The notes below the pieces were generated by a model. The model was not told the origin of the DNA and ran no database searches. It worked only from the letters and a program-made list of their open reading frames with translations. This document shows, one piece after another, positions 6,569-28,087 of a DNA stretch of 64,000 nt (positions are counted from its first letter, which is position 1; each line of letters begins with the position of its first letter). This DNA is from an uncultured Candidatus Saccharibacteria bacterium (GTDB taxonomy: Bacteria; Patescibacteriota; Minisyncoccia; Phycocordibacterales; GWA1-40-21), in contig CAZTJK010000001.1 in assembly GCA_964613715.1 (NCBI GenBank), positions 98,763-162,762 of the forward strand, given 5' to 3'. The position numbers and the translations under genes are program-made.

Positions 6569-7051
6569 TCACTGCAGATAAATATCCGCAAACCGGAAGA
6601 AATATTGCTGCAGATTGATGACAGAACAGATCGACCGCTCAGCACGCACCATAGCAACGACCTCGTTCATTGAGCATCGCTGGTTAAGCGCTTTTGCCAT
6701 AAGAAAGCGGAGGATAGAAATATCTTCGTCTCCGATCTTCATATGCTGAGAATCGACACGAGCAACATCGACAAGCTCGTAATATTCCTCTTGCGAGATA
6801 GCATTTTTTACTGCCCCCGCAATGAGCGCCGCATCTGAGAGGTAAAGCTCAACCAGCTCATCAATGCAGGAAAAACATGCAGTGACGCCCTCCGAAAAGC
6901 TGCGGTGAATCTGCTGATGCTCGCGGCAGAAGACGCGCGAGTTCCATGTGCAGATAGTGCAGGCGACCGACATACGGACAAGCTTGCTGCGGCGTATCGG
7001 CAGGACATGGTATTCCTGCAAATCCGTCTGACTGCAGAAATGGCAGTTCAT
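6569..7051 (-). CDS. Small Cys-rich (double zinc-ribbon-like) protein, paralog 2 of a tandem pair
   Basis: GAAAGGAGG Shine-Dalgarno 4 nt before the ATG. Motifs CHFC, CTIC and CFSC. Confidence 0.55.
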   Translation of the reverse strand: MNCHFCSQTDLQEYHVLPIRRSKLVRMSVACTICTWNSRVFCREHQQIHRSFSEGVTACFSCIDELVELYLSDAALIAGAVKNAISQEEYYELVDVARVDSQHMKIGDEDISILRFLMAKALNQRCSMNEVVAMVRAERSICSVINLQQYFFRFADIYLQ

Positions 7052-7187
7052 ACGGCCTCCTTTCTCCTGATATAAATGACCTTCCTGCTTTCAAAATAGC
7101 GTCTGCAGGCCGGGCTGTCAAACGAAAATTCTTGACTTATTTTTTCTGCATACTAGTATTGGAAGTGGAAAATGATCTTGAAAGGAG

Positions 7188-7532
7188 GTGGATATGCTAC
7201 CGATCCAGGCGAATAAATGCCGCTTGAATGTGACGGAAGATCCGCGAGTGCTCCTCGTCGAATGCAGCCATGGCAATGTTAGCACGGCTGCGATATGCCT
7301 CATGTACATCTTGGATAATGAGGTGCTCGAGCAAGGAGTATTCATGCTCGATGTGAAAGGCCCGAGCGTGCGGACGTTCGGCATCATTTTCGAAAAGATG
7401 GCGCGCAGGGCAGGGTTTGACGCGAAAGAGCTGGCTCGCAAGCTGCCGATCCATGCGGAAAACGGCTTGATCGTGGCCAATCATGGCTTCGACAGTGACC
7501 TTTTCGCGATTGGCAAGGAAATTCCTGGATAA
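7188..7532 (+). CDS. Small hypothetical protein (114 aa), putative member of the FFxP/LTxxQV small-protein family
   Basis: TTGACT-16-TAGTAT promoter, GAAAGGAGG Shine-Dalgarno and its own terminator. Core motif CRLNVTEDPRVLLVECS...AAICLMYIL. Confidence 0.55.
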   Translation: MDMLPIQANKCRLNVTEDPRVLLVECSHGNVSTAAICLMYILDNEVLEQGVFMLDVKGPSVRTFGIIFEKMARRAGFDAKELARKLPIHAENGLIVANHGFDSDLFAIGKEIPG

Positions 7533-7541
7533 GATGTATGA

Positions 7542-7570
7542 CCCGTTCCGAAAGGAGCGGGTTTTTGTTT
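7542..7570 (+). terminator. Rho-independent terminator
   Basis: Hairpin cccgttccgaaaggagcggg followed by tttttgtttt. Confidence 0.6.
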
Positions 7571-8787
7571 TAGAGGAATGCCCGCTTGCGGCGCGCGGTG
7601 TGGAATGCTACCGCGAAGCGATGCGCTTCGGTATTGGCAAGGAGGATATCCTTTTTGTATTTTTCGATAAGCGCTTCCCTGCCTTGGATCGCCTTCGGGC
7701 GATGCCGCTCGTCTTTCGTCACGGCGGCGACAGGGATATCGAGCTTCAGCGATTTCAATATTTTTTCAGCGGCATTCTTCTGCGGCAAAGCGCCGTCGAC
7801 GACGATAAGCGCAGGCAAGCGCCACTCGGCATGCGCCAGGCGACGGCGCAGCATCTCGACAAGCGCTGCTACGTCGTTCTGCATGCTCTCGTTTATCTTG
7901 AACTTGCGATACTCGACCTTGTTCGGCGCACCGTCCTCCACCACCGTCATAACGCCTACCGTATTCGTGCCGCTGATATGCGCAACGTCATATGCCTCAA
8001 TGCGGAACGCGCCTGTGCTAGCAGCGCCTGAGAAATCCGCACGCATGAGCGCCACGTCCTGGATATGGTTCAGCGCGAATATGGTCTTTTTAACTGCACC
8101 GGCTTTTTCGAATTCGCGCGCTTTCGCAAGCATCTTCATCTCCTTCGCAAGGTTCTTCAGTATATTTTTCTTCTTACCGTTAAAGAACAGTGAAATATTT
8201 TTGATAGTTTTCGCGTATTCCTGCTTTGACACGACGCCGATGCAGGTGCCGGGGCAGAGGCCGATCTGATAGTTGAAGCAGCCGCGTGGCTCGCCGAGCT
8301 TGCAGTAGTCGCGGAACGGGAATATCTTGCGGACGATCTTCACCGCGTCGCGCAACTGCGTGCCGCTCGTGAACGGGCCGAATTTCGCTTTCACTCTGTA
8401 GCCGAGCTCGTGCCCGCCCGAAAGATTCTTCCCTCGCTCTATAAGCACCCGCGGAAAATCCTCTTTCGTGATGACGACGTAATTGTAGCTCTTGTCGTCC
8501 TTTTCCTTCACATTGTATTTCGGCTGATATTTTTTGATGAGCGCGTTCTCGAGGATGAGCGCTTCGAGCACGGAGTCCGTCCGCTCGAAGGTCACCCGGT
8601 CGGCTTGGAAAACCATGTCGAGGATGGCCGGCCCGCGCGCAGCAATGAGGTCGGCAGCGAAATAGCTCTTCACGCGGTCACGGAGCAACGTTGCCTTGCC
8701 GATATAGAGAATCTGCCTGCCTTTCCTGAAGAAATAGACGCCTGGGGCCTGTGGCAGCTTAGTTTTTGCGAAATCTTGACTGTTCAT
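7570..8787 (-). CDS. uvrC: Excinuclease ABC subunit C, compact form (about 406 aa)
   Basis: GIY-YIG N-terminus (GVYFFRKGRQILYIGKA), a UvrB-interacting region and an endonuclease domain. The C-terminal HhH appears to be absent. Start trimmed to MNSQDF. Confidence 0.75.
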   Translation of the reverse strand: MNSQDFAKTKLPQAPGVYFFRKGRQILYIGKATLLRDRVKSYFAADLIAARGPAILDMVFQADRVTFERTDSVLEALILENALIKKYQPKYNVKEKDDKSYNYVVITKEDFPRVLIERGKNLSGGHELGYRVKAKFGPFTSGTQLRDAVKIVRKIFPFRDYCKLGEPRGCFNYQIGLCPGTCIGVVSKQEYAKTIKNISLFFNGKKKNILKNLAKEMKMLAKAREFEKAGAVKKTIFALNHIQDVALMRADFSGAASTGAFRIEAYDVAHISGTNTVGVMTVVEDGAPNKVEYRKFKINESMQNDVAALVEMLRRRLAHAEWRLPALIVVDGALPQKNAAEKILKSLKLDIPVAAVTKDERHRPKAIQGREALIEKYKKDILLANTEAHRFAVAFHTARRKRAFL

Positions 8788-8845
8788 TATTCGTGTTATA
8801 CCATGCGAAAAGAATCGGTTCAAATACAAAAAATAAGGAGATTCC

Positions 8846-9035
8846 CATGGGAAGCCCGTGCAGGCCGAGGCCTGCATTGCAGCACAACCGTATCAAGCAG
8901 CAGATCAGGCGACAGCAAGCGCAACAGGTAAAAAAGCCCCGCTACAAGGAAAAGGGCAGAACGAGCATGTTCTGGGCAGGAAACCATCTCTTCTCTTTGA
9001 CGAGAGATGGAACGATCCTGGAACACAACGTTTGA
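8846..9035 (+). CDS. Small basic hypothetical protein (62 aa)
   Basis: TAAGGAG Shine-Dalgarno 6 nt before the ATG, and a strong plus-strand terminator directly downstream. Confidence 0.4.
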
Positions 9036-9047
9036 CCAGCGCCTCCC

Positions 9048-9079
9048 GCGCCGGACCGTTTACGGTCCGGCGCTTTTTT
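9048..9079 (+). terminator. Rho-independent terminator
   Basis: Perfect hairpin gcgccggaccg-ttta-cggtccggcgc followed by tttttt. Confidence 0.65.
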
Positions 9080-9084
9080 CTTGC

Positions 9085-11691
9085 CTATTTTTTCTTCAGC
9101 ACCCGCTTCAGATATTTCCCAGTGTGCGACTTCTCATTCATCGCCACATCTTCAGGCGTGCCTTTCGCCACGACTTCCCCGCCCTTATCCCCGCCTTCCG
9201 GCCCGATGTCGATGATATAGTCAGACGACTTGATGAGATCCATATTGTGCTCGATGACGACCACCGTATTGCCGTTGTCGACGAGCTTCTGCAAAATCTC
9301 GATGAGCTTCTTCACATCCTCGTAGTGGAGGCCGATGGTCGGCTCGTCGAGGAAATAGATCGTCTTGTACATGCCCGGGCGATAGAGCTCGGAGGATATC
9401 TTCACGCGCTGCGCCTCGCCGCCCGAAAGGGTGGTCGCGGACTGGCCAAGCTTGAGATAGCCGAGGCCGACTTGGTCGAGGCAGTGCAGGCGGTCGTAGA
9501 CCGCCGGCAAATCCTCGAAGAATTTCAATCCGTCCTCCACCGTCATCTCGAGCACTTCGTGGATATTCTTGCCCTTGTATTTGACCTCGAGCGTCTCTTT
9601 GGTAAAGCGCTTGCCATGGCAGACATCGCACGGCACGTACACTGTCGGCAGGAAATGCATTTCCACTTCGATCGTGCCATTACCTTCGCAATTCTCGCAG
9701 CGGCCGCCTTTTACGTTGAACGAGAAGCGATTTGCTCCCCAGCCGCGCTCGCGGGCCGTCGCGGTCGTGGCGAACATATCGCGGATGAATGTCCACGCGC
9801 CGGTGTACGTCGCCGGGTTCGAGCGCGGCGTGCGACCGATCGGCGACTGATCGATCATGATAACGCGCGAGAGGTATTCGGAACCTTCAAAAGAAGTCGC
9901 ATTATAGGTATTCGCCGAGCGCATCTTCTTCTCGAGCCGCGCCTGCAAGTTTTTATAGAGAATCTCGTACACGAAAGAAGACTTGCCGGAGCCGGAAACG
10001 CCCGTAACCGTCACAAGCTTGCCGAGCGGCACGTCTACGCTCATATTCTTGATATTGAACACCTTGCCGCCGCGGACTTTCAGCTTGCCCTTGTCCTGGT
10101 CGCGGCGCTTTTTCGGCAGCGGAATCTTCGCCTCGCCGCGCAGGTAGTCAAGCGTGAGCGAACCGGATTTGTTCTCCTTTGCCGTGAGCAATTCTTCGAG
10201 CCAGCCAGAGACCACCACGCGGCCGCCGTGCACGCCGGCCTTTGGCCCGATGTCCACGATATAGTCCGAGGCATACATAGTGTCCTCGTCATGCTCGACG
10301 ACGAGTATCGTATTGCCGAGGTCGCGCAAATTCACGAGCGTCTTGATGAGCTTGTCATTGTCACGCTGATGCAAACCGATCGTCGGCTCGTCGAGCACAT
10401 AGAGAGCGCCAACGAGGCCCGAGCCGAGCTGCGAAGCAAGGCGTATGCGCTGTGCCTCCCCGCCCGAGAGCGTGTTCGCCCGGCGATCAAGCGAGAGATA
10501 CTCGATACCCACATCGGTCATAAAAAGCAGGCGCGAGTCGATTTCTTTCAAGATGACTTTGCAGATTTCAGCTTCTGTCTCCGTGAGCTTCAGACTCTCG
10601 AGGAAGAGCTTGGCATCGGTGATGGATTTCGCCGTATAGTCCACGATATTCACGCCGCCAAGGAGCACATGCAGTGCCTCCTCGCGCAAGCGTGCGCCTT
10701 TGCAGGTCTCGCAGAGCTCGTCCGTGAAGAAGTCCTTGGTCCCGAGGCCGTGGCAGGCAGGGCACGCGCCATACGGCGAGTTGAATGAAAAGAGGCGCGG
10801 CTCTATCTCCGGATACGAATAGCCGTCGTATGGACACATGAATTTTACGGAGATCATTTTTGTCTCCTCGGGCGTCTCCACTTTCAGGAGCCCCTTCGAC
10901 TCCTCAATCGCTTTTTCCACCGCGTCCGACAAGCGCTCCTTAATGCCCTCTTTCTTCTCCTTGAACTCGCTTGTGTAGAATTCATCAACGAGCACGTCGA
11001 TATCGTGCTTTTTGTTTTTGGACAAAATGATCTGATTGCGCAGCTTGTGCGCCGCGCCATCTACCTTCACCTCCGTATAGCCCTTCTCAAGGAGATCATA
11101 GAGCAGCTGATAGTACTCGCCTTTCCTGCCGACGACGATCGGCGAATAGATCTTCACCTTATCGCTCGTCACTTTCACGCCGAGAATATCTTTCGATTGC
11201 TTCGGCGATTTGAGATGCGTAACGGTATGGATGATGGTCTCAAGGATTTCCTCTTTCGATAATTTCTTGATTTCCCTGTTGCACACAAGGCAATGCGGCT
11301 TGCCGATGCGCGCGTAGAGGATGCGCAGGTAGTCGTATATCTCCGTGATGGTCGCCACGGTGGAGCGCGGGTTGTTCGAGCGCGATTTCTGGTCTATGGA
11401 AATAGCCGGCGACAGGCCGATGATCTCGTCCACATCCGGCTTTTGCATCTGGTGGAGGAACTGGCGTGCGTATGAGGAAAGCGACTCCACGTAGCGGCGC
11501 TGTCCCTCGGCAAAAATGGTATCAAATGCGAATGACGATTTACCGGAACCGGAAAGGCCCGTGACCGCGATCATCTTGTTGCGCGGCATGTGCACGGTGA
11601 TGTTCTTGAGATTGTGCGTCCGCGCGCCTTTGACGACGATCTCCTTCGCCTCTTCGTCAAAACCGGTCTTTGTGCTGTGTTTCGGGCTCAT
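9085..11691 (-). CDS. uvrA: Excinuclease ABC subunit A
   Basis: Two ABC ATPase modules (GLSGSGKSS and GVSGSGKSS) with zinc-finger Cys clusters. 868 aa. Confidence 0.9.
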
Positions 11692-11763
11692 ATATATGCG
11701 CTAACTCCCCCATGGACTGCTCCATAGGGGTTATTATCGGCATTCTACGCTCTCTTTATAGGT

Positions 11764-11790
11764 TTGACAATAGATAATCTATGATATTAT
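11764..11790 (+). promoter_or_regulatory. Putative sigma-70 promoter driving the retron ncRNA; its -35 overlaps a divergent uvrA promoter
   Basis: TTGACA, a 15-nt spacer, then TATTAT, ending about 7 nt before a1. On the opposite strand TTGTCA-17-TAGAAT points at uvrA. Confidence 0.4.
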
Positions 11791-11796
11791 GTTCAC

Positions 11797-12018
11797 TGAA
11801 CTTGTAAATTAAAAACCACTGCAGTATTTTTGTCTTTTTGTAAAAAGACTTCCGGGATATCTTTGACCTCAGGCGTTATATGTCTGGTGTCCATAGTAAG
11901 AAAAAATAAGAATAAAATCTTAAATTTCTGCTTAAAATAATCCTTGTCCTTTGAGAGGTTAGTGTCTTGAGAGGTAGGTAGAGTCAAATCTATCAACAAT
12001 AGCAACTTTACAAGTTCA
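11797..12018 (+). ncRNA. Retron msr-msd-like non-coding RNA bounded by 12-nt a1/a2 inverted repeats
   Basis: a1 tgaacttgtaaa (11797-11808) is the exact reverse complement of a2 tttacaagttca (12007-12018). There are internal hairpins (for example gtctttttgtaaaaagac). It lies immediately upstream of the retron-type RT in an AT-rich island. Confidence 0.5.
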
Positions 12019-12132
12019 TTGGGAGTGGTTTACGTTATTGTCCACCCTATAGTACAACTATGGAACTCATACTTTCATTGTTGCTTATTTTGCTCATCCT
12101 ACGGGAAAGCCAAATAAGGCACTAACACCTGA

Positions 12133-13011
12133 GTGGATAATGAAATTTTTTCTTCAAAAAAAGAACTTTTAAAATTTCTCAAGATCAGAGAAAACTTTTT
12201 GTATAATAATATCAAAGCTAAATATCAGGAAAAAAATTACAGAAAAAAAATGGTGGTTCGCGTCAAATCACAAAACCGAATAACAAATTAAAAGATGTTC
12301 AAAGAACTATACTGGATAAAATATTAGTCTTATCCCCGCAATTACCATGCGTGTATGGGTTATCAAAAAAGAAAGGCGTTGTCGCTAACGCACAAACCCA
12401 CCAAATTAACTATCCTTTTCAATTACTAACATTGGATATCAAAGATTTTTTCCCAAGCATTTCTAGAAAAAAAAATTACAGATATTTTTAAAAAAAATAA
12501 ATTTAACAAAGAAAACTCGGCAATTCTTACAAAACTATGTACTGTGAATGACTCACTGCCGCAAGGGGCGCCCACAAGCCCTTATTTGGCATCGTTGGTC
12601 TGTGAAAAAATGGATAAAAAAATCTATATTTACTGTAAGAAGAAAAAATTTATTTATACAAGATACTTTGATGATATTAGTATTTCTGGAAAAGACGTGT
12701 TGCTTGAAAAAAATATAAAAGATATTGAAAAAATTATCCAACAGCATGGTTTTATGCTAAATAATGATAAAAAATTTAGTTTTTTTGAAGCTGAAGATAA
12801 AATAATCACCGGTATAATAATTACAAATGGTAAGCTATCTGTAACTAAAGAATATAAAGATTCGATCAAGATTGCTTACAAAAATTATATTTTAGAAGAT
12901 AACCTTAAAAACCGAAATTTATTTTCGGGAAAATTTGGTTTTTATTTTCATGTGAATAAAAAAGATGCGTTGGATTTTTTACAAGAGTTAAAAAATAACA
13001 TTAATTGTTAA
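12133..13011 (+). pseudogene. Retron-type reverse transcriptase, frame interrupted by two compensating poly-A indels (possibly a pseudogene or homopolymer sequencing errors)
   Basis: Read across three frame segments the RT motifs appear in order: KKNGGSRQITKP, LKDVQRTILDKIL, VYGLSKKKGVVANAQTH (NAxxH), LDIKDFFPSI, LPQGAPTSPYLASLVC, YTRYFDDISI (YxDD) and ITGIIIT (the retron VTG-like motif). The frame shifts at an A7 run (12230-12236, one A short) and returns at an A9 run (12467-12475, one A extra). About 30% GC. Confidence 0.6.
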
Positions 13012-15042
13012 TTATTTCTTTTTCTTCCCCACCTTCCCCTCAATAGCCCGGATTTCATCCCGCAATATGGCTGCGGTTTCGAAATCGAGCATTTTCACTG
13101 CAGCGTTCATCTGTATCTCCTTTTGTTTGATGAGCTTGGCCGGGCTCTTTGCCGCAGCCGCTTCGTCTATGCGAAGCAGCTCGGCCACGGCCTTGTCATG
13201 GTCAGAGCGCAGATGCTCGGTGATGTCGTGGATTTTCTTGATGATGGTCTTCGGCGTGATGCCATGCTTGGTATTGTACGCTACCTGCTTTTCCCTGCGG
13301 CGATTCGTCTCCTCAAGGGCGCGCTCGATGCTGCCCGTCATGTTGTCGGCATAGAGCACGACACGGCCGGCGGCATTCCTCGCCGCACGGCCGATGGTCT
13401 GGATGAGCGAGGTATCGCTGCGGAGAAAGCCCTCTTTGTCCGCATCGAGTATGCCGATGAACTCTACCTCGGGCAGGTCGAGGCCCTCGCGCAAAAGGTT
13501 CACGCCGACGAGACAGTCGAACTTTCCTTTGCGGAAATTGGTCAGGATGTCGATGCGGTCTATGGTCTTTATCTCGCTATGCAGATACTCGGCCTTCACG
13601 CCTTTTTCTTTGAGATATTCCGAAAGATCCTCGGCCATTTTCTTGGTCAGGGTCGTCGCGATCACGCGGCCGTCGCGCTTCACGATCTTTTCCGTCTCGT
13701 CAATGAAGTCGTATACCTGGGACTTGTTCTTCCCCTTTACCTCGGTAATCGGCTTGATCTCGACAATCGGGTCCACGAGGCCCGTCGGACGGATGATCTG
13801 CTCTACGGTATTCTCGGAATGCTCGCGCTCGAAATCGCCCGGCGTGGCCGAAGTATAGATGACCTGGTTCACCCGATCCTCAAACTCCGGGAACTGCAGC
13901 GGGCGGTTGTCCTTGGCGGAGGGCAAGCGGAAGCCGTAGTCCACGAGCGTCTTTTTGCGCGAAGCATCGCCTGCGTACATGCCGCGCAGCTGCGGCACTG
14001 TGACATGCGATTCGTCGATGACGGTCAAGAAATCCGGGCTGCCATCTGCTTTGTGCGGGAAATACGCGAGCAGGGTTTCCGGCGGTTCGCCGGCTTTTTT
14101 GCCCGAGAAATGCCGCGCATAATTCTCGATGCCATTGCAATAGCCGACCTCGCGGATGAGCGAGAGGTCATGCGTGGTACGGCGGCGCAAGCGCTCGGCC
14201 TCGAGCTGCTTCCCTTCTTTCTTCAGCTCCGCGACGCGCTCATCGAGCTCTATCTTGATGCTTTCGATCGCGCGCTTCTGCTCGTCTTTGTTCGTCACGA
14301 AATGCTTGGCCGGAAAGATGAAAATTGCTTTCAGATTGTCTTCCGTAATTTTCCGCGAAACTGAGTCAATTTTCGTGATGCGGGAAATCGCATCATCCTC
14401 AAAATCCACTCGAATGAGAATTTTCTCGCCCGTCGGCATGACTTCGACAGAGTTGCCCACCGCGCGGAATTGGCCGGGCTTCACATCAGTATTGGTCCTC
14501 GTGAAATACACGCCGATGAGCCGCTTGATGAGATCCTGGCGGGACTGCTTGTCGCCCACTGATAGCTTGATATTCGTTTTCTCGTATTCTGCCGGGGAGC
14601 CGAGGCCGTAGATGCAGGAAACGGATGCGACGATGATGACGTCTTTTCTCGTGAGCAGGGCCTGGGTGGAGGCATGGCGCAGGCGGTCTATCTCCTCGTT
14701 TATCATCGCCTCTTTTTCTATGTACGTGTCGGTAATCGGCATATACGCCTCCGGCTGATAGTAGTCGTAATAGGAGACGAAATAATGCACGGCATTGTCC
14801 GGGAAGAACTCCTTGTACTCCTGCGCGAGCTGGGCCGCGAGCGTCTTGTTGTGCGCGATGACCAAGGTCGGCTTCTGCGCTTTTTCAATGACATTGGCAA
14901 CGGTAAAGGTCTTGCCGGTGCCGGTCGCGCCGTAGAGTATCTGCTTTTTCAAGCCCTTTTTGAGGCCCTCTGCGAGGGATTTGATGGCCTCTGGCTGGTC
15001 GCCTGCGGGCGCGTATTCGTTCTTGATCTTGAATCTGTCCAT
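13012..15042 (-). CDS. uvrB: Excinuclease ABC subunit B
   Basis: Helicase motifs (GATGTGKTF), a UvrB interaction domain and a C-terminal UVR coiled coil. 676 aa. Confidence 0.9.
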   Translation of the reverse strand: MDRFKIKNEYAPAGDQPEAIKSLAEGLKKGLKKQILYGATGTGKTFTVANVIEKAQKPTLVIAHNKTLAAQLAQEYKEFFPDNAVHYFVSYYDYYQPEAYMPITDTYIEKEAMINEEIDRLRHASTQALLTRKDVIIVASVSCIYGLGSPAEYEKTNIKLSVGDKQSRQDLIKRLIGVYFTRTNTDVKPGQFRAVGNSVEVMPTGEKILIRVDFEDDAISRITKIDSVSRKITEDNLKAIFIFPAKHFVTNKDEQKRAIESIKIELDERVAELKKEGKQLEAERLRRRTTHDLSLIREVGYCNGIENYARHFSGKKAGEPPETLLAYFPHKADGSPDFLTVIDESHVTVPQLRGMYAGDASRKKTLVDYGFRLPSAKDNRPLQFPEFEDRVNQVIYTSATPGDFEREHSENTVEQIIRPTGLVDPIVEIKPITEVKGKNKSQVYDFIDETEKIVKRDGRVIATTLTKKMAEDLSEYLKEKGVKAEYLHSEIKTIDRIDILTNFRKGKFDCLVGVNLLREGLDLPEVEFIGILDADKEGFLRSDTSLIQTIGRAARNAAGRVVLYADNMTGSIERALEETNRRREKQVAYNTKHGITPKTIIKKIHDITEHLRSDHDKAVAELLRIDEAAAAKSPAKLIKQKEIQMNAAVKMLDFETAAILRDEIRAIEGKVGKKKK

Positions 15043-26030: not shown

Positions 26031-26759
26031 CTATTTGTCAAGATAGTGGCGCAGCGTGTAGAGCCAGTCTTCTTCCCCTTCTTCATTCGTACGCTTCTGC
26101 TCGAAAAGCCATTCGAGATACCGGCGATCCGTCTTCAGCACTTCTTCAATAGTCTTGCCATTGTATTTGCCAAAATTGAACTTGGTGAAGAGCACCGGCG
26201 TGCGAGAAATCTCCATCATGCGCTCGATCGCTGCCGCTTCGCTCCCCGCCTCTGCTGTCATTTTTGCAAGCAGCCGCGGAAATATTGCTGCAAGCACGCG
26301 CACATCCCCCTCGGCATCATGCGCCGTGCCTGTTACATCAAGGTGCAGATAGTAGCGGAGAAATTGCAGGCCGTATTCAGGAATGGCATTCTCCTTGTCG
26401 AGATAGCGCGCCATGCGGAAGGTGCAGATGAAGCGCGGCACGGAAATACCTTCAGACTCGAGCATGCTGATATCGAATTTCGCATTATGCGCCACGAGTA
26501 TTCCCTGCTCAAGCAGCTTTTGCAGATCCTTTGCCATGCTACTCCCAGCAAATGCTGGCTTGTCCGCCAGCATCTCATTCGTAATATGATTGATGCTCAT
26601 AGACTTCACAGACACCGGCATTGGCGGCTTGAAGTATTCAGTGCGTATCGTCTCCCCTGCCTGATAGCAGACTTGGCAAAGCCGGTCTGTGCCAAGAATA
26701 TTTCCAGTCGTTTCAGTGTCGAGGAAAATGAGCGGTAAATTATTAAATTTAGATTGCAT
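26031..26759 (-). CDS. DnaQ-like 3'-5' exonuclease (DEDDh family) with a C-terminal extension
   Basis: Exo I motif LIFLDTETTG and Exo III motif HNAKFDISML. Confidence 0.65.
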   Translation of the reverse strand: MQSKFNNLPLIFLDTETTGNILGTDRLCQVCYQAGETIRTEYFKPPMPVSVKSMSINHITNEMLADKPAFAGSSMAKDLQKLLEQGILVAHNAKFDISMLESEGISVPRFICTFRMARYLDKENAIPEYGLQFLRYYLHLDVTGTAHDAEGDVRVLAAIFPRLLAKMTAEAGSEAAAIERMMEISRTPVLFTKFNFGKYNGKTIEEVLKTDRRYLEWLFEQKRTNEEGEEDWLYTLRHYLDK

Positions 26760-26788
26760 TTCTTTTTTGCTATTAAAAACAGTTGCTT

Positions 26789-27490
26789 TTATTTCTGAGT
26801 AATTAAAGCATACTTTTGAAGATTTTCTATAATTTTTGGTCTAACTATCTTATTTACCCAAATAGAATATAACCAAAGAATTGTATTATAAGTTTGAGTC
26901 TCAGTCATAATATCTCTTACAAAAAATAAAGCTGCTGCATTTTGTTCAATTAATTCAATAAATGCGACATGTAATGGTATTAATGCCGAATTTTCAATAG
27001 TATTTAAATTTTTTACTTTCAGGGCAAATTCTTCTAACATGTTTAATAAACTTATATGTAAATCTAAGATTGTATCATCAATTTTTGCTGTTTCAGGATT
27101 AAAAAATATTAATAACTGATTAGTAAAATTGCTTGAATCTCTCTGCATTAAATCACTAATAATATGTTTTTCGATATGGATGCTAGGAAACAGAAAAGAA
27201 CTGTTTTTCTTTAAAAAAGCCTTGCTAGTGTGTATCCACTCCAAAAGAATTTTTTCGCGAAAAAAAGTTACCTGGTCTATTGCAGCCGCAGTAAGATCTT
27301 GTTGTTTTTTGTAAAAATAGTTTACTATAGCAATAATTAAAGAAAAAGCACCAAAACTACTTAAAACTTTTTGAATAATATCTAACTGAAATTCAGATAA
27401 AGTTTTTAATCCTATCAAATAACCAATTAAAAATAACAGAAAACCTGCAAAGCAAAGAAGGAGAAATGTTACGATGTCTTTTTTTATCAT
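26789..27490 (-). CDS. Hypothetical 2-TM membrane protein encoded in a second AT-rich island (about 28% GC)
   Basis: Two N-terminal TM helices, then a soluble domain of about 160 aa. A TAAAAT box 12 nt upstream of the ATG. Its composition matches the retron island rather than the flanking genes. Confidence 0.45.
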   Translation of the reverse strand: MIKKDIVTFLLLCFAGFLLFLIGYLIGLKTLSEFQLDIIQKVLSSFGAFSLIIAIVNYFYKKQQDLTAAAIDQVTFFREKILLEWIHTSKAFLKKNSSFLFPSIHIEKHIISDLMQRDSSNFTNQLLIFFNPETAKIDDTILDLHISLLNMLEEFALKVKNLNTIENSALIPLHVAFIELIEQNAAALFFVRDIMTETQTYNTILWLYSIWVNKIVRPKIIENLQKYALITQK

Positions 27491-27517
27491 ATCTTTATCG
27501 TAATTTTAACATATTTT

Positions 27518-28087
27518 ATGTATACTATACTTATGAAAAAGCTTCTCTATTACATAGCTATACTCACGATCATCGTGGTCGGATTCCATTATCTCTCCCC
27601 TTACCTGCCAAAAGCTGGCGCGCCGCAAGCGGCAGCATTTGCTGATCCAAAAAATGGCACGTACACTATCGAGAATGAAAAGGTTACGCTCGCGAGCGGC
27701 AAAGCGGAGCAGAGCGTGACGCCAGATTCAAGTTCGAAAGAGATCACGGAATATTTCGGGAATGTTGCTACGGGTGATGTGAATGGCGATGGTCTGCCAG
27801 ACAAGGTGTTTCTTCTCGTGCAGGCAGGCGGTGGCAGCGGCACCTTTTACTATATTGCCGTAGCGCTTGGTGCGAAAAGCGGCGGCTATACGGGTACAAA
27901 TGCAGTATTTATCGGCGACCGTATTGCTCCGCAAAGCACTGAAATAAACAAAGGAAATATCATCGTAAACTATGCAGACCGCCTGCCGGGCGAACCTTTC
28001 ACTGCCGAGCCGACCATCGGCATGTCAAAATATTTCCGAGTGACGAATGGCGTGCTTGCCGAGATAAAGAATCCGAATTCGGATTAG
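27518..28087 (+). CDS. Membrane-anchored or secreted hypothetical protein
   Basis: N-terminal TM or signal segment. GDVNGDGLPD-like motif. 189 aa. Confidence 0.45.
   Translation: MYTILMKKLLYYIAILTIIVVGFHYLSPYLPKAGAPQAAAFADPKNGTYTIENEKVTLASGKAEQSVTPDSSSKEITEYFGNVATGDVNGDGLPDKVFLLVQAGGGSGTFYYIAVALGAKSGGYTGTNAVFIGDRIAPQSTEINKGNIIVNYADRLPGEPFTAEPTIGMSKYFRVTNGVLAEIKNPNSD

Follow-up and report, generated by a model that had tools for sequence, protein, structure and literature searches.

What is a retron-type reverse transcriptase (RT) gene, with two breaks in its reading frame and no effector gene beside it, doing in a Patescibacteria genome, where it lies between uvrA and uvrB, two genes of DNA repair? 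The question is raised by a segment at 11757-13011 (the left limit is approximate) of a 64,000-nucleotide (nt) stretch of contig CAZTJK010000001.1, which is called the window in the following; all coordinates are those of the window. The segment has a GC content of about 29% and comprises, on the plus strand, a promoter, a non-coding RNA (ncRNA), and the RT gene. Retrons have been defined as tripartite, toxin-antitoxin-like systems consisting of an RT, a multicopy single-stranded DNA (msDNA), as well as an effector, and the clade described here travels alone in the streamlined genomes of episymbionts. We consider it likely that the segment is a horizontally acquired, self-contained retron cassette of a Patescibacteria-specific clade, that it has no linked effector, and that its RT frame has been broken by real slippage. 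The cassette is a real retron cassette, and its clade is characterised by the absence of a linked effector, a branch position that is not restricted to G, and RNA helices that cross each other. All sequence features listed in an initial annotation of the DNA were found where they had been placed.

Classification of the reverse transcriptase

If a base is inserted into the first A tract and another is deleted from the second, the three frame pieces of the gene join into a corrected RT of 292 amino acids (aa). Of the motifs that had been listed for an RT of about 300 aa, KKNGGSRQI, NAQTH, DIKDFFPSIS, LPQGAPTSP, and YTRYFDD with its YFDD are present, and ITGIII has an ITG where retrons have VTG. 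The corrected RT matches Pfam RVT_1, and far more strongly the retron RT models of PADLOC (RT_III-A 3.2e-67, RT_II-A 1.6e-66, RT_VI 2.3e-58, Ec107-like 1.6e-57). Its best NCBIfam match is retron_St85_RT with 196 bits, which falls under the curated cut-off of 235 bits; the group II maturase model TIGR04416, Drt3a, and Drt2 reach 37, 53, and 33 bits at cut-offs of 300, 200, and 390, respectively. When the family profile was compared with the PDB, the closest chain was the RT of retron Ec86 (7v9u, 1.7e-53), followed by the RTs of Ec67, Kva2, Ec83, and Ec78, while group II RTs appeared at about 1e-11 and Drt2 at 2.6e-7, roughly 40 orders of magnitude weaker. An Rfam match to group II intron RNA was not found around the RT open reading frame (ORF). 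Judged by these matches, the corrected RT is a retron RT, and it groups, as had been proposed, with the retrons and not with the RTs of group II introns, those of diversity-generating retroelements, or those of the Abi/DRT systems.

A search of 5.8 billion proteins revealed about 65 close relatives, which are intact, comprise 285-305 aa, and share 43-60% identity. Few relatives have a source name or a matching record title; these belong to Nomurabacteria, Saccharibacteria, or Parcubacteria, and most of the family is from metagenomes. The corrected window RT aligns end to end with the family, is gap-free over both junctions, and has kept 26 of the 26 invariant family columns, nine of which are located in the out-of-frame middle segment. 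The NA..H motif is nearly invariant in the family. Scans of genome and metagenome contigs gave at least five close-family loci among the matches listed, the remainder being distant retrons. A tblastn search of a phage collection and a blastn search of a plasmid collection gave distant retron RTs at most, and viral contigs scanned with the conserved ncRNA motif gave no match. Some family members are irregular. P0042, which is present on six contigs, has an N-terminus that is unrelated as far as the KKNGG tract, P0067 begins at motif 2, and P0066 is aberrant at its C-terminus. Disrupted copies may be common in this RT family.

A conserved structured RNA upstream of the RT

The DNA of 12 distinct family loci could be obtained, and each of them contains 370-520 nt of gene-free and strongly conserved sequence upstream of the RT. 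Twelve relatives share an upstream RNA of roughly 345 nt, for which a core alignment of 12 sequences was made. Among 168 fetched loci, nhmmer profiles of this ncRNA matched only those of the close family. In the alignment 86.7% of the cells are paired, compared to 40-46% if the pairing partners are slid by one to three columns, and changes on both sides are found in 37 of the 59 pairs; these values were reached by none of 500 shuffles. Covariation thus supports a structured ncRNA at this place. G·U pairs are frequent, and because they would be C·A pairs on the opposite strand, the plus strand must be the RNA strand. Selection clearly acts on the RT and its RNA, because about 65 diverse proteins are intact and compensatory change in the RNA is extensive.

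The RNA is preceded by the promoter (11764-11790) that had been proposed, which consists of a -35-like TTGACA (11764-11769) and an extended -10 element TGATATTAT (11782-11790). The TATTAT of the latter occupies 11785-11790, leaving a spacer of only 15 nt, and the TG at 11782-11783 makes it an extended -10. It aligns with TGnTATAAT, 7-9 nt before a1, in all relatives, although a plain consensus scan of the region gave promoter-like sites that were no more common than in shuffled sequences. On the minus strand, the -35 of the retron is overlapped by another promoter-like site (TTGTCA/TAGAAT, 11770-11742).

The closing helix is formed by a1 (TGAACTTGTAAA, 11797-11808) and a2 (TTTACAAGTTCA, 12007-12018), which are exact reverse complements of each other over 12 nt. 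When the 390 nt upstream were simulated 300 times with a Markov model, two of the simulations contained an exact inverted repeat of 12 nt or more. The repeat, which had already been described for the window, is also conserved in the homologous loci, where substitutions are fully compensated: the helix persists in 12 relatives with nine of the 11 aligned pairs compensated, and the arms in L169 (UCAUACGAG / CUCGUAUGA) are wholly unlike those of the window. Within a1/a2 the msr/msd plan is found, consisting of a hairpin and a long variable stem. The msr-like hairpin P1 (GUCUUUUU-GU-AAAAAGAC, 11832-11849) is paired in 100% of the cells with compensatory changes in three of seven pairs, and reads ACCCUUU/AAAGGGU in L168. 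The msd-like stem-loop (11852-11946) is closed by CCGGG/CCUUG (CAGGG/CCUUG in the family RNA), a helix that is 95% paired, and its interior varies from 62 to 128 nt among relatives and adopts a long irregular stem in single-sequence folds. Besides a1:a2 and P1, the RNAalifold consensus contains the closure helix and the hairpins in the 3' part of the RNA. One of these covers the putative Shine-Dalgarno region (UAAGG) 5' of the GTG start (12083-12120, 82% paired, six of eight pairs compensatory), and a conserved GACCUCAGUGGAUAAUG surrounds the GTG itself. A pairing of CAACAAU with CAUUGUUG (12077-12084) was considered as well and rejected, as relatives inspected by eye gave no support for it.

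On the strand that msDNA would have, a stop-free frame of 78 codons extends over 11796-12029 (minus strand), nearly exactly from a1 to a2, which is unusual at 30% GC. L165 has a stop-free frame of 98 codons and the other relatives have none. This frame on the strand of the complementary DNA (cDNA) is probably not a gene.

Departures from the canonical retron RNA

According to Khan et al., the branching G of retrons is often preceded by TTA. The linker at this position in the window (11809-11812, alignment A5) reads UUAA, so that UUA is followed by A. The conserved branching G that the initial annotation had suggested to look for is therefore an A in the window, and the family has A in nine and G in three of the 12 sequences, with no invariant G near a1.

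Further departures are found on both sides of a2. Upstream of it there are two non-canonical additions: a conserved single-stranded block (11947-11976) with two copies of (C)CUUUGAGAG(G), or UUGAGAG, in invariant columns of alignments A2, A3, and A5 (L165 has only one copy), and an extra small hairpin, GGUAGA/UCUAUC, whose loop contains a conserved AGUC (11977-11994, 68% paired, three of five pairs compensatory, in an imperfect MAFFT register). Downstream of a2 there is a 3' extension (12021-12047) that contains the elements Y2 (GGGAGUGGUUU), H5b (GUUAUUGU), and Z (CCACCC), all of which are part of covarying helices (X2:Y2, H5, and Y2:Z). X2 (AAACCAC, 11813-11819; AAACCAC(C) in the family RNA) follows the linker and is complementary to Y2 at 12025-12031 (columns 24-32/190-198, 91% paired, five of nine pairs compensatory). 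H5a (ACAAUAGC, 11996-12003), which is found shortly before a2, forms a helix with H5b at 12034-12041 (columns 160-169/200-209, 84% paired, seven of ten compensatory). In the layout of the family, H5a is ACAAUAACA, before a2 and at the expected start of the RT template, and a2 is followed by Y2 GGGGUGGUUU, H5b UGUUAUUGU, Z CCACCCC, and then the hairpin of the ribosome-binding site region. Y2:Z is 93% paired with compensatory changes, and Y2 is able to pair with either X2 or Z.

X2:Y2 and H5a:H5b both cross a1:a2, and X2:Y2 competes with Y2:Z, so the helices cannot all nest. The crossing helices, as read from the alignment, imply one of two things: H-type pseudoknots, where a1:a2 and X2:Y2 would form a stack and the branch-site linker would be placed at their junction, or alternative conformers, one of which would sequester the first template bases in H5a. 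The RT had been thought to follow immediately after the repeats; instead, a conserved structured spacer of 114 nt (12019-12132) separates it from a2. The canonical layout proposed for the locus holds as far as the order of msr-msd and RT is concerned, and fails in that the ncRNA runs 114 nt past a2, has helices crossing a1/a2, and carries an A at the branch.

The arrangement a1-X2 ... a2-Y2 is independently supported because a sister clade keeps the same order with unrelated sequence. These are retron-like RTs of Patescibacteria with 37-41% identity, represented by L016 (4455-4735) and L030 (4458-4745), whose ncRNA reads TACTTTGGTAAT-AT-AATCTTCCCGA ... ATTAKCAAAGTA-ATTT-TCGGGAAGGTT. It is followed by a GC-rich terminator and is again without a G after a1.

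A retron clade without linked effector

In the classification of Mestre et al. 2020, retrons are tripartite and the RT and the effector are adjacent and co-evolving in all types. In the window there is no room for an effector between the RT and uvrB. Among the loci of 13 relatives plus the window, no conserved neighbouring gene was found; often the neighbours have the opposite orientation or a housekeeping function (gyrA and uvrA/uvrB, for example). An all-versus-all BLASTP comparison of the ORFs within 4 kb showed that only serine recombinases and methyltransferases are shared. Downstream of the RT, the loci encode a DUF3223/HamC-like protein (L001), HsdM (the P0002 locus), a NERD protein (L167), a 359-aa unknown protein (L168), unknown proteins on the opposite strand, or gyrA (L169), and an adjacent helix-turn-helix (HTH) gene is present in L165 only. 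Because the neighbours differ at every relative's locus, the lack of an effector is a property of the clade. The initial annotation was thus right in seeing no effector here, and the reason is a trait of the whole clade and not the mere lack of room. The intact copies that it had suggested to look for in relatives do exist, and none of them share an adjacent effector. A fused effector was not found either, as the family proteins do not exceed 310 aa and have no extra domain.

Only at L001 does the RT have a partner in an operon-like arrangement. The DUF3223/HamC-like gene of this locus (6890-7558, PADLOC 2e-36) is encoded on the same strand as the RT, overlaps the RT stop by 8 nt, and is a candidate effector for that member. 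Two other hiding places were considered and rejected: overlapping or antisense ORFs in the RT gene are not conserved, and for an effector in a second AT-rich island of the window or near uvrB, Pfam and PADLOC gave no support, with nothing effector-like in the 64-kb window. A search of a literature collection for retrons in taxa of the candidate phyla radiation (CPR)/Patescibacteria returned nothing relevant.

Comparison with known systems and proposed mechanism

The closest solved RT is that of Ec86 (Eco1), a type II-A retron composed of the RT, msr/msd, and an NDT effector; the similarity (1.7e-53) extends over residues 26-288. Ec86 and the clade share NAxxH and YxDD, an ncRNA that is closed by a1/a2, preceded by a promoter and located directly upstream of an RT on the same strand, and a short msr hairpin together with a long msd-type stem. 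Unlike Ec86, the clade has no effector, a shorter RT (292 aa), an A for the G after UUA, about 70 conserved nt between the long stem and a2, and an ncRNA that continues for 114 nt past a2 with crossing helices. In place of VTG, the window has ITG and most relatives have IN[GSN]. Types III-A and VI (Mestre et al. 2020) are also close, with RT_III-A giving the top PADLOC score and RT_VI 2.3e-58, and type VI retrons have only small HTH partners. Unlike these types, the clade has neither a PRTase/WH-SWIM partner nor a conserved small HTH partner. The scores for II-A, III-A, and VI are nearly tied, so that the clade is not a specific match to any one of these types. DRT2 resembles the clade in being a two-component system of an RT and a structured ncRNA without a separate effector gene, but its RT is only remotely related (33 bits at a cut-off of 390; 2.6e-7 in the PDB comparison) and the clade has no conserved stop-free repeat frame.

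Combining these features, the extended -10 promoter would start a transcript at a1, the first ~220 nt of which would fold into an a1/a2-closed RNA of msr/msd type with a short hairpin, a long variable stem, and a GAGAG-rich block, and a further 114 nt of conserved structure would lead to the 292-codon Ec86-like RT. As expected for a member of the retron family, an intact RT would bind the RNA and reverse-transcribe into msDNA what lies 5' of a2, namely H5a, the AGUC hairpin, the GAGAG block, and the variable stem. Initiation of this reaction, translation of the RT, or both may be modulated by the 3' helices. The msDNA-RT complex might act alone or with an unlinked partner; if it has a role in defence, the killing or sensing partner would be unlinked or absent. 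The copy in the window would be OFF.

One may go further and regard these loci as a distinct class of minimal two-component retrons of Patescibacteria, made of an RT of ~290 aa and an ncRNA of ~345 nt, with a pseudoknotted initiation site (a1:a2 on top of X2:Y2, H5 and Y2:Z being alternative pairings), an adenosine branch, no dedicated effector, and poly-A switching in the present copy. The msDNA-RT complex itself would then be active, or the system would have a role other than defence. This more specific proposal is tentative and, taken in all its parts, rather doubtful. If the clade is truly effector-less, it raises the question of what a retron does without an effector, and it would offer very small RT/ncRNA pairs of about 1.25 kb for retron-based DNA production.

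Two frameshifts in the window copy

The RT gene of the window is split into three segments. Segment 1 (frame 1, 12133-12250) begins with the GTG start at 12133 (MDNEIFSSKKELLKFLKIRENFLYNNIKAKYQE...) and aligns with the N-terminus of the family. Segment 2 (frame 0, 12237-12475) contains KKNGGSRQI...NAQTH...DIKDFFPSIS with the invariant family residues kept; motifs 1-2 are indeed out of frame, as had been observed. The translation of segment 3 (frame 1, 12476-13011) comprises LPQGAPTSP, YTRYFDD with the catalytic YxDD, ITG, and the thumb, and ends with TAA. Ordinary decoding of the gene would give only fragments of 52, 46, and 155 aa.

According to the family hidden Markov model (HMM), one A is missing in the first frameshift zone (12230-12250), which contains an A7 (12230-12236) and an A8 (12243-12250); a repair in either tract scores nearly the same (420.8 bits for A7, 420.0 bits for A8). 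At the second site, an A9 (12467-12475), one A is extra, and its repair scores 7 bits above the T5 alternative. The in-frame state would be AGA AAA AAA AAT, with an A9, at the first site, where relatives encode KKN as AAA AAR AAT, and AGA AAA AAA ATT at the second. The two compensating poly-A indels that had been described, -1 and +1 in two AGA(8-9) tracts, and the A9 site remain, while the first indel may be in the A8 and not in the A7.

The checked host genes with A7-T8 runs (TGT, DnaE, ThrRS) are full-length by Pfam, and therefore the assembly is not full of homopolymer errors. The run at the KKN site is broken by a G or a non-A codon in ten of the 12 relatives, and at the second site no relative has more than six A in a row. 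Because relatives mostly interrupt these runs, the tracts of the window are unusually slippage-prone, both in vivo and in sequencing. Given the intact host genes, the slippage-prone tracts, and the other family members that are disrupted near the same 5' region, the frameshifts probably are real slipped-strand changes, leaving a copy that is OFF or decaying, recently inactivated, or phase-variable. This is the least certain point of our interpretation. The window copy is thus probably switched off, and its local biological impact may be nil. Homopolymer contingency loci, for example those of restriction-modification systems, are alike in having uninterrupted A8/A9 tracts that set the frame within a defence-type ORF. 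Unlike at those loci, two tracts must both have the right length here, and relatives are without long tracts; the comparison is based on a consensus sequence.

The same 14 nt, AAAAAAATTACAGA, are found at 12230-12243 and 12469-12482, and the incoming frame reads AAA AAT TAC AGA at both places. A 14-nt repeat somewhere in the gene occurred in 13% of the simulations. The shared sequence was rejected as a recoding signal, as it is not significant on its own (P = 0.13 for a repeat of this length anywhere), and was left as a coincidence.

Alternative explanations

Several observations weigh against the reading of the locus as an effector-less retron silenced by slippage. The best NCBIfam match stays below its curated threshold, an Rfam scan of 11000-13600 at E<=10 returned chance-level matches only, the canonical branching G after a1 is absent, and the lack of an effector is in conflict with Mestre et al. 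2020, who define retrons as tripartite, so that a role in defence is an assumption. Concerning the frameshifts, their exact compensation and the flawless 79 codons between them also fit two homopolymer miscalls, and the number of broken runs, two of eight in the RT compared to none of about 16 in host genes, is not significantly different (Fisher estimate about 0.1). The clade could consist of ordinary tripartite retrons with an effector gene at another place in the genome, acting in trans. Described retron defence needs an effector, gene order in Patescibacteria is fluid, and besides the overlapping DUF3223/HamC-like gene of L001, three other loci have different genes downstream on the same strand (HsdM, NERD, and the 359-aa unknown protein). 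However, no neighbour family is common to the 13 loci, adjacency and co-evolution of RT and effector apply to all types of Mestre et al. 2020, and nothing effector-like is found in the 64-kb window including its second AT-rich island. We regard an effector in trans as a possibility to be taken seriously, albeit on the unlikely side. That the element is not a retron but another system of RT and ncRNA, such as a DRT2-like element or a mobile retroelement, is in our view very improbable. It would agree with a stand-alone RT behind an upstream ncRNA as in DRT2, with the 78-codon stop-free frame on the cDNA strand from a1 to a2, and with cassettes that are located alone between housekeeping genes in two genomes. 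DRT2 builds a gene by rolling-circle reverse transcription. The Drt2, Drt3a, and group II models score far below the retron models, though, and the cassette has no terminal repeats, nor ends that are conserved outside the stretch from the promoter to the RT stop. Matches in phage and plasmid collections or viral contigs are missing as well. The stop-free frame is not conserved in relatives, by which a DRT2/neo-like product was ruled out.

The interpretation of the frameshifts as real changes has its own competitors. Sequencing or assembly could have misjudged the homopolymer lengths, in which case the RT of the real genome would be intact and active. The breaks coincide with the window's longest A runs (A8/A9) and compensate each other exactly, and the 79 codons between them have kept every invariant residue and are stop-free in an AT-rich context; moreover, AT-rich islands in GC-richer metagenome-assembled genomes are often unevenly covered. 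Nevertheless, we think such errors unlikely, with the checked host genes with A7-T8 runs being full-length and P0042 and P0067, which come from independent assemblies, looking disrupted near the same tract. In addition, the homopolymer errors of a platform are usually biased in one direction, whereas one deletion and one insertion are found here. Another explanation is that the frameshifts are decoded, by -1 slippage on A_AAA_AAU/A_AAA_AAA at 12230-12250 combined with +1 slippage on the A9, or by slippage of the RNA polymerase. This would result in low, regulated amounts of full-length RT, or, in a related form, in heritable ON/OFF phase variation by tract length. Sliding on A tracts and transcriptional slippage are established phenomena, both sites have slippery A heptamers in phase with the incoming frame (A_AAA_AAN), the overlap windows of the frames are open at 12222-12291 and 12427-12491, and both sites share AAAAAAATTACAGA. 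But no relative is frameshifted at either site, so recoding is not a feature of the family, two low-efficiency events in series would yield very little protein, and a stimulatory structure was not identified. Decoding therefore appears quite improbable to us.

Genomic context and origin of the cassette

The locus is located in an AT-rich trough, with a GC content of 0.23-0.33 over 11750-13100 compared to 0.52-0.59 on either side in the composition scan. The flanking genes are, as the initial annotation had it, uvrA and uvrB, both of them encoded on the minus strand. UvrA is encoded by an 868-aa ORF (9085-11691) that is 83% identical at the nucleotide level to uvrA of the relative L170, and UvrB by a 676-aa ORF (13012-15042), assigned by the names and the UvrB/UVR Pfam domains of its relatives. 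One database protein is 100% identical to this UvrB, and the close relatives with a source name (72-89% identical) are annotated as excinuclease ABC subunit UvrB. At the right end of the cassette, the stop codon TAA of the RT (13009-13011) directly touches the uvrB stop (13012-13014), which bears out the earlier description of the junction. The UvrB relatives indicate a Patescibacteria/Paceibacterota-like host. Because this host is GC-rich compared to the close-family loci, which have 31-44% GC, the cassette is a recent import from a low-GC relative.

L170 (GCA_028865965.1), whose UvrB is 89% identical to that of the window, carries a different AT-rich island (8040-9500, 26-33% GC), which starts 2 nt past the uvrB stop and contains three unknown ORFs, one of them with weak NERD/REase similarity. 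The order in L170 is uvrB, the AT-rich island, 1.2 kb of small ORFs, and then uvrA. In both the window (13011/13012) and L170 the host sequence stops at GAAATAA(TTA). As the two carry different AT-rich cargo at the same junction, the 3' end of uvrB looks like a hotspot for the insertion of foreign cargo in the host lineage.

Genes of DNA repair or DNA metabolism are found within a few kb of the cassette in L001, L002, L166, L169, and the window. They comprise uvrA/uvrB, UDG, Pur_DNA_glyco, RmuC/ExoX, and gyrA, and their proximity may be due to chance in small genomes. In the window, there is also a gene for a short UvrC (GIY-YIG and UvrC RNase H domains) at 7570-8877. The second low-GC island at ~26700-27600 (0.37-0.44 per kb) contains the gene of a 233-aa protein (26789-27490, minus strand) with an N-terminal hydrophobic segment, for which searches of Pfam and PADLOC gave no match; an ExoX/RNase T-like gene (26031-26759) adjoins it. 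The gene of the 233-aa protein is probably another foreign gene, and a link to the retron was not found. A host-like GC-rich hairpin (CCCC...GGGGG) is located 15-20 nt 5' of the uvrA start both in the window (11707-11730) and in L170 (about 10710-10732) and is probably a conserved element of the uvrA 5' untranslated region.

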